Below, in pieces: positions 43,252-56,436 of a DNA stretch of 64,000 bases (positions are counted from its first letter, which is position 1; each line of letters opens with the position of its first letter). The notes beneath the pieces were generated by a model. It searched no databases. It was not told the DNA's origin and worked only from the letters and a program-made list of their open reading frames with translations. Origin of the DNA: Patescibacteria group bacterium. Lineage in GTDB: Bacteria; Patescibacteriota; Minisyncoccia; GCA-002772825. A program made the position numbers and the translations under genes. The stretch covers positions 137 through 64,136 of the forward strand of contig JANLHB010000016.1 in the NCBI GenBank assembly GCA_024654625.1, written 5' to 3'.

Positions 43252-44097
43252 ATGGCAAATGAAGAGACTTACAATTATCTGACGGATAGGGTTGGGAAGA
43301 TCACAAGCGCCTTATACAAGGTGACGGATTTTATGTCTGATAAAGAGCCTCTCAAGTGGTCTTTAAGAGGCGCTTCAGTCAACATTTTGATAAATGTTGT
43401 CTCTTTGAAAGATAAAGACTCTCAAGGCAAGATAACTTCTTTTGCAGAGATATTTGAATCTTTAAATAAGGTTATCCATATGCTTGATATCGCAAGTATT
43501 AGCAGTTTTATAGCCGGTTTGAATTTTGAAATTCTAAAGAGAGAATATGAGAAAATAGGAGAGCTTATAGAGACCGATAAGAAAGAAGAAATACTATTTT
43601 CTGATAAGCTGTTTCCTGAGTTGACCGATAGTGTTCATAAGGATAAATATTTTAATAAAGGACAAACAGACATTCATAATGGACAGTATAAAGGACAAGC
43701 ATTGGATAAAGGACAGGGCTTATATAAAGGACATAGCTATAAAGGACAAGGACAAAATATGTCCGTTATGAATAGTTATTATGGTGTAGGGGGTATTCAA
43801 GATAAGCAACGCTTAGGCAGTAAGAATAGTGGCCTTAATCAAAATAAAAATATATCTAATAATAATGAAAATATTATTAATAAAAATCAGTTTATAGACA
43901 GTCAAAAGGACGCTCAATTAAGGGATATCATTGATTTTATTAAGAAGAATGGACATGTAACTATAAAGGACATCTCTTCTAATTTTCCGAAGATGAGCCA
44001 GAAGACGATACAAAGAAGATTGCTTTATGTGGTAGATAATGGACTCTTGGAAAAAGAAGGTGACAAACGCTGGAGAAGGTATTTTGTAAAAAAATAA
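43252..44097 (+). CDS. Hypothetical protein with KGQ-rich low-complexity linker and C-terminal winged-helix-like DNA-binding domain
   Basis: Repeats NKGQ/YKGQ/DKGQ. C-terminal DIIDFIKKNGHVTIKDISSNFPKMSQKTIQRRLLYVVDNGLLEKEG resembles a wHTH. Confidence 0.3.
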   Translation: MANEETYNYLTDRVGKITSALYKVTDFMSDKEPLKWSLRGASVNILINVVSLKDKDSQGKITSFAEIFESLNKVIHMLDIASISSFIAGLNFEILKREYEKIGELIETDKKEEILFSDKLFPELTDSVHKDKYFNKGQTDIHNGQYKGQALDKGQGLYKGHSYKGQGQNMSVMNSYYGVGGIQDKQRLGSKNSGLNQNKNISNNNENIINKNQFIDSQKDAQLRDIIDFIKKNGHVTIKDISSNFPKMSQKTIQRRLLYVVDNGLLEKEGDKRWRRYFVKK

Positions 44098-44101
44098 AAT
44101 A

Positions 44102-44125
44102 GTCAATCCGCCACGGCGGATTGAC
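44102..44125. terminator. Terminator hairpin GTCAATCCGCCACGGCGGATTGAC (second identical copy)
   Basis: Identical to 11747-11770. Followed by a T-run. Confidence 0.6.
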
Positions 44126-55460: not shown

Positions 55461-55503
55461 GCCCCATATCAAGGACCGTCCTTGATATGGGTAGTCGTCA
55501 GAT

Positions 55504-56436
55504 TTGTATAATAGATTTATGGGTATAAAAAGATTTATTTTTACTGTTATTTTAACGCTCGGTATTTTAGGCATCAACTTTGCTTTATTTAACGCGCCAC
55601 GCGCAGAGGCAGGGGAGACGATAAATGCCGGTTTTGTGAGTGGCTTGTGGTACTCAAGTAATAATTTTTTTGCCGGTGACAATGTGCGGATCTATTCGGC
55701 TATTCAAAATAATTCCGGTTTTGACATTGTCGGCAAGATTCAATTTTTTGATAACGAGGAAATTATTGGTGGATCAGAATTTTCGGTGATAAATGGGCGG
55801 TTGGTAGAGAAGTGGACAGATTGGAGTGTGAAGGAGGGCGACCATAATATTTATATAAAATTGGTTGATACTAAAAAGGCGATTATTGGCGGCGGATTTG
55901 AGCCTGTAACTTTAACTTTTGATTCTTCCCATACTGATAAAAGGTTCATTGATTCTGACACTGATGGTGATAAGATTGGAGACGCTGTAGATACTGATGA
56001 TGATAATGACGGCCTATCTGATGAGGAAGAGAAGTCGTTAGGGACGGACATTCTAAATAAAGATACAGATGGGGACGGAGTTTTTGATGGGGACGAAGTT
56101 TCAAGTGGCACTAATCCATTAGTTGCTTCTGGGAATAATACAGACGAAGAAGATCTACGTAGTTATGAAGGAGACACTAAAATAGGAGATATAAAAGATA
56201 TCGCCAAGTCTGTCGGACAGAAAACAGGAGAAACTATAGACAGCATAGTAGACAACCTAAAAGACAAAAAGACGTCCGTAGATGAAGCCAATAACCAAGA
56301 TAACCAAACCGGTCAGAGTAATTATTACGCGAAATTACTCTCAACCTTGATATATATCTTAGAGCACAAATGGCTTTTGGTAGCCGTATCTTTTATTCTA
56401 GCTCTGATATTAGGGAAGATGTTGAGGATAATTTAA
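55504..56436 (+). CDS. Surface protein with thrombospondin-type-3-like calcium-binding repeats and C-terminal TM anchor
   Basis: N-terminal signal/TM, repeats DSDTDGDKIGD / DTDDDNDGLSD / DTDGDGVFDGDE (DxDxDG), C-terminal hydrophobic helix WLLVAVSFILALILG. Confidence 0.5.
   Translation: MYNRFMGIKRFIFTVILTLGILGINFALFNAPRAEAGETINAGFVSGLWYSSNNFFAGDNVRIYSAIQNNSGFDIVGKIQFFDNEEIIGGSEFSVINGRLVEKWTDWSVKEGDHNIYIKLVDTKKAIIGGGFEPVTLTFDSSHTDKRFIDSDTDGDKIGDAVDTDDDNDGLSDEEEKSLGTDILNKDTDGDGVFDGDEVSSGTNPLVASGNNTDEEDLRSYEGDTKIGDIKDIAKSVGQKTGETIDSIVDNLKDKKTSVDEANNQDNQTGQSNYYAKLLSTLIYILEHKWLLVAVSFILALILGKMLRII

Follow-up and report, generated by a model that had tools for sequence, protein, structure and literature searches.

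Envelope genes between ftsK and rplJ in a Patescibacteria bacterium: a probably vertically inherited neighbourhood with an exchangeable surface-protein half and a resident REP/RAYT pair

A 13-kb block of envelope genes lies between ftsK and rplJ on contig JANLHB010000016.1 of a Patescibacteria group bacterium (assembly GCA_024654625.1), inside a stretch of 64,000 nucleotides that was analysed as a whole and is called the window in what follows. The block comprises a winged helix-turn-helix (wHTH) gene, the gene of an 1182-aa, putatively S-layer-like surface protein (SLP), a membrane-bound tetratricopeptide-repeat (TPR) protein, a REP-associated tyrosine transposase (RAYT) with its repetitive extragenic palindromes (REPs), small membrane proteins, a 1596-aa multidomain membrane protein (GIANT) and a protein with TSP3 Ca-binding repeats. 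This block is likely to be the local form of an envelope neighbourhood that has been inherited vertically and kept between ftsK and rplJ in Paceibacteria, which are ultra-small bacteria. Its genes would center on a major wall-anchored surface protein, whose distal half has been exchanged between lineages, and on a transposase gene that stays in one slot together with palindromes private to each genome.

Gene order and boundaries

Using FtsK as the anchor, 78 loci were taken from the species representatives of the Genome Taxonomy Database (GTDB); the best FtsK matches of the window are metagenome-assembled genomes of Parcubacteria, Vogelbacteria and Paceibacterota. The gene order efp-(sigma)-recA-x-ftsK<>wHTH-SLP-(TPR)-(RAYT)-TM-GIANT-...-rplJ-rplL recurs across these loci, and about 70 Paceibacteria genomes, whose FtsK identity spans 45-87%, keep its backbone, ftsK<>wHTH-SLP...rplJ, in synteny. 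Since order and flanks are the same in these genomes, the block represents a conserved backbone and not a mobile island. To the left of the window ftsK lie the genes of a small Glucodextran_B-like protein, of RecA and of a sigma factor of the extracytoplasmic function (ECF) type, followed by efp; on the other side, the wHTH gene adjoins ftsK in divergent orientation in 68 of 70 loci.

Gene content was counted in those 48 loci whose sequence extends 7 kb or more upstream of ftsK. The wHTH gene is found in 46 of them and an SLP-type gene in 41, namely 26 of full length and 15 of a short form (600-690 aa) that has only the N-terminal anchor in common with full-length SLP. The corresponding figures are 22/48 for the TPR gene, 19/48 for RAYT, 17/48 for genes like that of the 197-aa single-pass membrane protein and 18/48 for GIANT-like genes. 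The distance from ftsK to rplJ ranges from 5.8 to 9.85 kb in 16 other loci, as compared with 13.66 kb in the window. The comparison of this interval across relatives, which the initial annotation had proposed as a check on variability, gives a divided answer, with content varying by module and order being kept in about 70 genomes. That annotation had placed its listed genes on one strand, bounded by ftsK and the rplJL unit, and had pointed to a concentration of envelope and surface genes with mobile repeats among them. All the listed genes do lie on the plus strand with their reading frames as described, domain searches support the architecture, both boundaries are confirmed by Pfam (FtsK, L10, L7/L12), and the concentration is real. 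Its list overlooked the conserved 55-57-aa membrane reading frame at 49973-50146, and the REPs that it had assigned to small membrane proteins actually lie within the TPR and RAYT open reading frames (ORFs). The coordinates of all features are collected in Table 1.

The surface protein, its leader and its regulator

SLP belongs to a family of more than 1291 full-length homologs, nearly all of 1150-1240 aa, which carry the NCBI name 'peptidoglycan-binding protein'. Secretion and wall anchoring are indicated by a Sec-like N-terminus, judged by eye, together with a PG_binding_1 domain. On the window protein itself this domain is sub-threshold (20 bits against a cut-off of 23); at the family level it is backed by PF01471 on many homologs, and a profile search of the Protein Data Bank (PDB) retrieved the peptidoglycan-binding domain of 1lbu with an E value of 3e-4. 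The AlphaFold2 model, built with 58 homologs (pLDDT 85), consists of disordered residues 1-39, a helix at 39-61, the helical peptidoglycan-binding domain, a disordered Thr/Pro linker at 168-184 and about eight beta-sandwich domains. The N-terminal part is presumably proximal to the wall and the C-terminal part distal. When submitted to Foldseek, the model matched generic tandem Ig-like chains only (PrgB, integrin legs, complement MG domains), at template-modelling (TM) scores of 0.2 or less.

Several features of the gene are putative signs of high expression, that is, double promoter boxes, a leader of about 390 nt, a strong conserved terminator and conservation of third codon positions. In particular, SLP has the highest nucleotide and third-position identity of its neighbourhood. 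The non-coding DNA upstream of SLP is 80-86% identical to that of two relatives (L002 and L003 of our locus collection), which equals the value of recA coding DNA; third codon positions, at 49-61% in the same comparison, fall far below the leader. Over six genomes, the leader reaches 88% column identity. This upstream stretch may represent a structured leader or else a small RNA. Rfam gave no credible match for it, RNAalifold found too little variation to judge its structure, and a hairpin near 44508-44545 shows a few compensatory changes.

The protein encoded between ftsK and this promoter region is a probable regulator of the surface-protein gene. Its match to Pfam HTH_DeoR is weak (E 0.055), as are its other Pfam matches; PF08220 is precomputed on many of its homologs, whose NCBI names are those of ArsR/DeoR regulators.

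Exchange of the distal half among close relatives

The two closest relatives of the window, L104 (Logan run SRR29054608) and L105 (a JGI metagenome), were reached via the wHTH protein. RecA of the window is 93% identical to that of L104/L105, 91% to that of L002 and 89% to that of L003, and the figures for FtsK, in the same order, are 87, 85 and 80%. For SLP they are 60-61%, 86% and 79%; in other words, SLP is as conserved as FtsK, or about so, in L002 (86 vs 85%) and L003 (79 vs 80%). In a sliding comparison with L104/L105, identity over residues 1-650 is for the most part 70-95%, falling to about 50% in two stretches of 50 aa, there is a sharp breakpoint near residue 650, and residues 651-1182 are 30-44% identical. 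At the nucleotide level, homology with L104/L105 ends at about 46735 and is back at the SLP stop codon and terminator. Against L002/L003, identity is 66-94% throughout and 76-94% in the C-terminal part. Moreover, the C-terminal half of the L104 protein is 59-61% identical to the C-terminal halves of L057 and L066, which are Campbellbacteria-like, and its N-terminal half has its nearest match in the window clade. It follows that L104/L105 have a chimeric SLP and that the distal half exists in two or more deeply divergent types, as judged from sequence identity. The REPs described below were considered as breakpoints of the swap and ruled out, the left break lying within the reading frame near residue 650, its right counterpart where the stop codon and the terminator are.

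The TPR gene accompanies the type-1 distal half, which is that of the window, in 22 of 24 loci and the type-2 half in none of five (three GTDB loci, L104 and L105). In L105, which has no TPR gene here, some 200 nt with a REP in them separate the SLP terminator from the start of RAYT; the window counterpart of this interval reads REP1...TPR...REP4. A weak remnant of the 3' end of the TPR gene persists in L104. This association suggests that the TPR protein may act as an assembly or partner factor of the type-1 half.

Another difference among the same relatives concerns the left flank. Between efp and recA, the window (38373-39470) and L104 (5107-6236) have the ECF-type sigma factor gene and, after it, an ORF of 116-123 aa; L105 (6160-6212) has neither, so that this pair represents a second presence/absence difference among close relatives. 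A REP copy of L104 (5147-5171) sits exactly in that sigma-ORF interval.

Role of the surface protein

SLP probably binds the peptidoglycan of its own cell and extends from it as a chain of some eight beta-sandwich domains, which would make it the major surface protein, of S-layer-like or fibrillar kind. In three cultured Paceibacteria, the five signal-peptide genes with the highest expression include some for peptidoglycan-binding-domain (PGBD) proteins, and those of the five that were of unknown function have been modelled (PMC10936435). A number of points weigh against this assignment. No known S-layer family or fold was recovered for SLP in Pfam, NCBIfam, Foldseek or the PDB profile search; the high expression of PGBD proteins would be carried over to SLP by likeness of domains; and the PGBD gene does not adjoin ftsK in at least one genome of the cited study.

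A possible but rather unlikely alternative is that SLP serves as a host-attachment adhesin or as the carrier of a wall-modifying enzyme, its peptidoglycan-binding domain being directed to the peptidoglycan of a bacterial host. The fold matches to adhesin-type Ig chains (PrgB, integrin legs) would fit such a function, PGBD proteins have been proposed as host-attachment enzymes by Kuroda et al. 2024 (PMC10936435), and the distal half is swapped between lineages as a ligand-binding tip would be. However, SLP is near-universal, is fixed beside ftsK and is as conserved as FtsK, and neither Pfam nor NCBIfam detected a catalytic domain in it. The position of the peptidoglycan-binding domain beside the signal peptide, at the N-terminus, suits anchoring to the cell's own wall, and the hosts of the cultured Paceibacteria (PMC10936435) are archaea, which are without peptidoglycan. 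Anchoring of SLP to its own cell is the reading retained here.

A resident transposase and its private palindromes

The HUH motif and the catalytic tyrosine of the transposase (H79, H81, Y139) are invariant in 18 RAYT orthologs. A single-sequence search of the PDB with RAYT gave no match, and a profile search gave a weak, marginal match to the HUH strand of ISDra2 TnpA. Its slot is common to 18 GTDB loci and to L101, L104 and L105, that is, to 22 of the genomes examined including the window, and the gene is not multi-copy in any locus examined. RAYT is probably a resident, domesticated and vertically inherited gene, which may occasionally be replaced. Our literature search found no paper linking RAYTs to Patescibacteria.

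A search with TCCAAGGGGNCCCCTTGGA (up to three mismatches) gave six matches in the 64-kb window, all between 48377 and 49911, and none in shuffled sequences; the core-type palindrome of the window is ATCCAAGGGGNCCCCTTGGAT. Seven REPs are distinguished in all, every one of them within 43-56.5 kb, and two of them, REP 4 and REP 6, flank RAYT in inverted orientation. According to a hairpin census, nearly every RAYT ortholog has perfect palindromes (stems of 9-29 bp) at its flanks, at a distance of 1-60 nt, whose sequence around each RAYT is specific to that genome. Specifically, the window, L002 and L003 each possess their own REP type at equivalent intergenic positions, and at the place equivalent to REP 1 both relatives carry REPs of different sequence. 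REP 4 lengthens the TPR ORF by six codons as compared with L002/L003, and REP 1 marks the point at which homology between the window and L104/L105 ends, beside the stretch where those two genomes are without TPR.

Occasional REP copies are found 10-12 kb away in two relatives (L057 and L104). Scanning metagenomes for the REP core gave 25 loci, with L101 as the sole syntenic relative; the other REP-core loci are single palindromes on unrelated contigs with a GC content of 40-71%. The same core was seen in L088 (3640-3690) and L098, on an unrelated metagenome contig with an IS481-like integrase, and its flank there, CAATCCTAATCCAATCCTAATCCAAGGGG, resembles the stretch after the window RAYT (reverse complement of 49890-49935).

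Some observations sit uneasily with a REP/RAYT pair inherited in this way. The protein falls below the cut-off of NCBIfam NF047646 (36.3 bits against 80) and is a distant relative only. The window REPs are not dispersed, with seven copies in 64 kb and none in the remaining 50 kb or so. There is no obvious GTAG/CGTC tag; the flanks are of the form (T/A)ATC...GAT(A/T), and only the variant at 48502 starts with CGTC. Finally, the RAYTs of L104 (15509-16228) and L105 (15237-15908) are 72% identical while FtsK of the same genomes is 94.5% identical, RecA 98.8% and SLP 95.6%, a discordance that points to occasional replacement of RAYT besides vertical descent. The REP types of the two genomes differ as well (CCAAAAGGTGAGACCTTTTGG vs ATCCAAGGTSNSACCTTGGAT), and RAYT and REP seem to be replaced, or to evolve, jointly.

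A REP hairpin within the RAYT reading frame

In ten genomes (the window, L003, L101, L104, L105, L013, L027, L034, L057 and L066), a REP of the genome's own type lies within the RAYT ORF, in the variable segment that precedes the HUH strand; with a decayed copy in L002 the number rises to 11. The center of the palindrome falls on codon position 2 in every carrier, and the peptides encoded by the hairpins are unrelated among carriers. In the 11 sequences, 93.4% of the stem cells pair as compared with 57% in shuffles, and each of the 11 stem pairs has changed on both sides. Covariation scores 1.05, as compared with 0.29 for shuffles, none of 500 attaining the observed value, and 0.11-0.29 for slid controls. 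This signal is tempered by two facts: the covariation set was preselected for the presence of the hairpin, and the hairpin is missing in 12 of the 23 RAYT orthologs examined. Simple insertion of 21 nt was ruled out as the origin of the in-ORF REPs, because the TPR-internal copy and the RAYT loop are equal in length to palindrome-free orthologs. In the RAYT tree the carriers fall into three groups, so that either the site is ancient and was lost several times, or a single permissive site gained the hairpin repeatedly. The RAYT papers checked, some of them through intragenic terms, describe REPs as flanking rayt, and an intragenic copy was not found mentioned in them.

The in-ORF REP may be either tolerated or functional. 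If functional, it would be a cis element, namely a hairpin in DNA or mRNA that RAYT binds or cleaves for autoregulation or self-limitation, within a REP/RAYT pair co-opted for the surface locus, where it might affect mRNA stability, termination, or recombination and diversification on a local scale; we regard this as unlikely, if worth stating. Such a role would account for the same codon position and frame in 10-11 genomes of three RAYT lineages, for the covariation of all stem pairs over a peptide that is not conserved, and for the fact that the hairpin always matches the flanking REPs of its genome; the position of RAYT beside the SLP gene across the class and the missing TPR gene next to a REP point the same way. 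On the other hand, the hairpin is decayed in L002 besides being missing from about half of the orthologs (12/23), the SLP swap has its breakpoints away from REPs, and in-frame palindromes also occur in unrelated genes, such as that of an isoleucyl-tRNA synthetase (IleRS)-like protein, which suggests general tolerance. The full proposal, in which a domesticated RAYT and its REPs have long been fixed beside the major surface-protein gene, the in-ORF REP is a single-stranded DNA or mRNA autoregulatory site and the pair serves the surface locus, is doubtful and offered as speculation. If true, REP/RAYT would, for example, shape transcript ends or promote local deletion or replacement, rather than spread repeats genome-wide.

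That the whole block is a horizontally acquired or mobile island of surface genes, moved by the transposase, is very improbable and largely refuted. A Y1 transposase and clustered repeats are indeed present, gene content differs among relatives and GC content is uneven (0.31-0.45 across the block, in a window of about 38% GC). Nevertheless, besides the order and flanks common to about 70 genomes at 45-87% FtsK identity, there are no tRNA genes at the block and no integrase in a Pfam scan of the window proteins, RAYT keeps one slot, the REPs flank RAYT only and not the ends of an island, and the GC excursions track Thr/Ala/Gly-rich coding sequence. A reading as a defence system was likewise ruled out, PADLOC giving weak wHTH-type matches only; with the backbone in about 70 genomes and neither integrase, tRNA nor defence match, the block lacks the marks of a genomic island. 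Thus, the island implied by the initial annotation does not stand, its 'transposase' being a resident gene, and the suggestion of a variable surface locus survives in part. The swap of the SLP distal half, the presence or absence of TPR, the GIANT architecture and the ftsK-rplJ distance of 5.8-13.7 kb speak for it; the frame is stable, the backbone is vertical and SLP is as conserved as FtsK in L002/L003.

The idea that the palindromes are ordinary terminators or chance hairpins and the Y1 gene an unrelated IS200-type insertion, for which REP 1 speaks by passing the terminator scan, besides several other hairpins of these loci that clearly are terminators, is refuted for the core copies and has next to no probability left, as there are six near-identical copies where none is expected, three of them in ORFs and most without a T-tract, as all copies around each RAYT are alike and genome-specific, and as the gene is syntenic across the class and single in the loci examined.

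Membrane proteins and the putative exo-enzyme

Downstream of RAYT, the 197-aa ORF probably starts at 50164, given the conserved ORF at 49973-50146. Its overlap of 22 nt with GIANT is conserved across loci, and the single-pass membrane protein is probably translationally coupled to GIANT. The two start regions (50159-50192 and 50665-50698) are direct repeats of 71% identity (AAAWTATGGAAAATMA...), and both proteins begin with MEN-.

The first 197 residues of GIANT have no counterpart in any locus examined, the homologs of L104 and L003 beginning at about residue 198, at the signal anchor just before the domain that resembles Zn-dependent phospholipase C (PLC). It may be a membrane extension specific to the lineage, or else the ORF is over-extended. 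GIANT homologs are mostly of 700-840 aa and comprise the PLC-like, Ig and lamin-tail (LTD) domains (residues 200-1115); the C-terminal beta-helix is missing from most of these and present in L104, L031, L021 and L072.

A search with residues 195-560 gave 103 homologs, of which 18 carry PF00882 as a precomputed match. Among 59 sequences, the candidate metal ligands H34, D72, H80, H164, D168, H180 and E192 do not vary, and H161 and H174 hardly do. The AlphaFold2 model of the domain is of good confidence (pLDDT 89.7, pTM 0.86), and the top 17 Foldseek matches are all PC-PLC, PlcB or alpha-toxin, followed at much weaker scores by S1/P1 nucleases; the best is PC-PLC of B. cereus (1ah7, E 3.8e-5, TM 0.56 on target). 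As the best Foldseek matches are of these three kinds, the PLC-like fold assignment of the modelled domain is supported, and GIANT is predicted to be an exo-enzyme acting on host lipid or on other phosphoesters. Two findings count against this prediction: PF00882 on the window protein stays below the Pfam cut-off (19.5 vs 26.8 bits), and among the PLC-like homologs that are fused to SNase or LTD, the SNase fusions are with a nuclease. The PLC segment searched as a single sequence against the PDB gave no match. As to the TSP3 protein, its TSP3_bac match reaches 41.3 bits against a cut-off of 25, and no homolog was found in the loci examined.

Table 1. Features of the block and of its boundaries in the window
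Feature	Coordinates	Strand	Remarks
ftsK	40861..43122	-	left boundary; Pfam FtsK_SpoIIIE 5e-59 and alpha, gamma, 4TM domains
Inverted repeat, 30-nt arms	43162..43225	.	divergent ftsK/wHTH intergenic region; related palindromes at the same place in L104, L105
wHTH (DeoR/ArsR-like), 281 aa	43252..44097	+	N-terminal helical domain, KGQ-rich linker, C-terminal wHTH
Terminator-like hairpin after wHTH gene	44096..44131	.	core CAATCCGCCACGGCGGATTG; 20-mer recurs at 11749
SLP promoter region and ~390-nt leader	44170..44737	+	two conserved promoter-like boxes at 44212, 44322
SLP ORF, 1182 aa	44738..48286	+	signal-peptide-like N-terminus, peptidoglycan-binding domain
SLP N-part (aa 1-650)	44738..46687	+	signal peptide, coiled helix, peptidoglycan-binding (~aa 74-165), Thr/Pro linker, first beta-sandwich domains; conserved
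SLP C-part (aa 651-1182), type 1	46688..48286	+	about four beta-sandwich domains; swapped/variable
SLP terminator hairpin	48320..48360	+	kept in L002, L003, L104, L105; listed in terminator scan
REP 1	48370..48402	.	16-bp stem; intergenic SLP/TPR; passes terminator scan
REP 2 (variant GTCCAAGGTGTCACCTTGGAC)	48502..48522	.	upstream of TPR; L002-like
TM-TPR protein, 214 aa	48548..49192	+	transmembrane (TM) helix; TPR_8 28.1 bits vs cut-off 25.7, further TPR families
REP 3	48646..48668	.	in frame within TPR ORF, aa 33-39 (IQGAPLD); no length change vs L002/L003
REP 4	49169..49189	.	final 7 TPR codons (IQGVPLD*); 33 nt upstream of RAYT start
RAYT-like Y1 (HUH) transposase, 221 aa	49222..49887	+	Y1_Tnp 31.5 bits vs cut-off 23
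REP 5	49377..49399	.	within RAYT ORF, aa 52-58 (IQGVPLD), just before HUH strand
REP 6	49890..49914	.	3 nt past RAYT stop; central base A vs T in REP 4
Small membrane protein, 55-57 aa	49973..50146	+	conserved in L104, called as gene there
Single-pass membrane protein (197-aa ORF; 175 aa from 50164)	50098..50691	+	weak Pfam matches only
GIANT ORF, 1596 aa	50670..55460	+	Zn-PLC-like/Ig/LTD/beta-helix membrane protein
GIANT N-terminal extension, ~197 aa	50670..51260	+	multi-TM, very hydrophobic, internally duplicated; GC 0.31
GIANT Zn-dependent PLC-like domain	51327..52304	+	PF00882 sub-threshold; fold match
GIANT Ig-like and lamin-tail	52953..53771	+	Big_6, Glucodextran_B weak; LTD 41.2 vs 34.3, E 2.4e-10
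GIANT C-terminal right-handed beta-helix	54012..55460	+	Beta_helix E 6e-16; variable add-on
REP 7 (variant, TATCAAGGACCGTCCTTGATA core)	55463..55491	.	identical to L003 REP type
TSP3 protein, 310 aa	55504..56436	+	signal peptide, beta domain, TSP3 Ca-binding repeats, acidic linker, C-terminal TM anchor
rplJ-rplL	56785..57849	+	right boundary; Ribosomal_L10, L12 Pfam matches

Other repeats and RNA features of the window

Further palindromes were noted in the window and its relatives. A 20-nt core, CAATCCGCCAC(G/A)GCGGATTG, is common to terminator-like hairpins at unrelated sites (window 11743-11774 and 44096-44131, L002 13624-13667, L105 5529-5572), which may represent a further family of small repeats or a bidirectional terminator that has been reused. 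Several Paceibacteria genomes contain the palindrome CCTGCCTGCCGGCAGGCAGG or close variants of it (window 14132-14151 and 43186-43201, L013 12604, L057 16459, L034 4151, L014 16707), one copy being located within the large inverted repeat of the ftsK/wHTH intergenic region. The IleRS-like gene (21193-24798; tRNA-synt_1 and Anticodon_1) contains a perfect, in-frame palindrome of 45 nt, TTGGCGGTTCAACCGCCAAATTAAATTTGGCGGTTGAACCGCCAA, at 23813-23857, between the catalytic and the anticodon-binding parts, which constitutes a second, unrelated family of in-ORF palindromes. The same ORF shows an unusual fusion or insertion, with a His_Phos_1 domain (E 3e-30) embedded in the middle of the synthetase domain at residues 498-662. 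At the Rfam gathering threshold, RNase P RNA alone was found; it is of bacterial class A and extends over 574 nt (7506-8079) against a model of 367 positions, hence containing large insertions.

A possible mode of evolution of the locus

The core of the locus would consist of the wHTH gene, divergent from ftsK, followed by a strongly promoted, long-leader and terminator-bounded SLP gene. To this core, downstream modules would be added, namely the TM-TPR protein, a domesticated RAYT with private, lineage-specific REPs, the membrane proteins with the exo-enzyme, and the TSP3 protein. Change could then take four routes: homologous replacement of the SLP distal half with a break near residue 650, TPR loss, the junction in L105 holding a REP, gain or loss of domains in the exo-enzyme (GIANT), and concerted turnover of REPs with their RAYT. 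In this scheme, the REPs would be local in action, mainly in cis, and would have settled at tolerated coding positions, including one loop of RAYT, where the hairpin would be kept or renewed over long periods.

Relation to known systems

In the slpA cassettes of C. difficile and the sap system of Campylobacter fetus, a conserved wall anchor is combined with an exchangeable exposed part, a strong promoter and leader, and a strong terminator. SLP differs from these systems in that its anchor is PG_binding_1, and not SLH or CWB2, and in that it is without sequence or fold relation to solved S-layer proteins; moreover, no silent cassettes were seen in the window. The PGBD proteins of cultured Paceibacteria share with SLP the signal peptide, the peptidoglycan-binding domain, the Ig-like beta domains and the class, and their predicted structures are similar across genera; one of them, PMX_810_sub_00350, is not next to ftsK and, with 692 aa, is nearer the short 600-690-aa form (PMC10936435). 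With the Zn-PLC enzymes (1ah7, Listeria PlcB 8cqm, clostridial alpha-toxin), the GIANT domain has in common an all-helical predicted fold (TM 0.56-0.61 on target). In contrast to them, it has a membrane anchor and is joined to Ig, LTD and beta-helix domains, carries a beta-hairpin insertion and a long C-terminal helix, and is only 13-16% identical.

The REP/RAYT systems of Proteobacteria (E. coli yafM/TnpA_REP and the rayt genes of Pseudomonas and Stenotrophomonas; PMC2817692, PMC5581495, PMC3479197) resemble the pair described here in their Y1 HUH and Tyr residues, in a gene flanked by short, GC-rich, inverted palindromes of lineage-specific sequence, in compensatory change that keeps palindromicity, and probably in a mainly vertical, housekeeping-like inheritance. 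Unlike them, the pair belongs to a Patescibacteria host, its protein is below the NCBIfam RAYT cut-off, its palindromes are perfect, 21-33 nt long and without an evident GTAG/CGTC tag, the few REPs lie within a few kb, with one in the RAYT ORF and two in the TPR ORF, and the slot near the surface-protein gene is fixed across the whole class. As for in-frame palindromes, the nearest precedent is the Rickettsia palindromic element (RPE), which is also tolerated in ORFs, where it adds or replaces short surface-loop peptides (PMC10969869, PMC1779305). RPEs are of about 100-150 bp, genome-wide and with no cognate transposase known, whereas the REPs described here are of 21-33 nt, local and tied to RAYT, with one site that is positionally conserved and turns over with the flanking copies.

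Significance

The candidate phyla radiation (CPR), also known as Patescibacteria, is a large group of mostly uncultured, host-attached bacteria whose envelope proteins are almost unknown. The locus nominates a class-wide candidate for a major wall-anchored surface protein, together with its likely regulator, leader and partner and with a PLC-like neighbour. In addition, the exposed half of this candidate has been exchanged between lineages, as expected for a part that faces the host or phages. The REP/RAYT system is extended to a streamlined phylum, in a minimal and local form with a handful of REPs around one syntenic RAYT. A further element, of which the RAYT papers checked gave no description, is a positionally conserved, covarying REP within the RAYT gene itself, and the role that RAYT plays for the cell becomes testable on a very small system.

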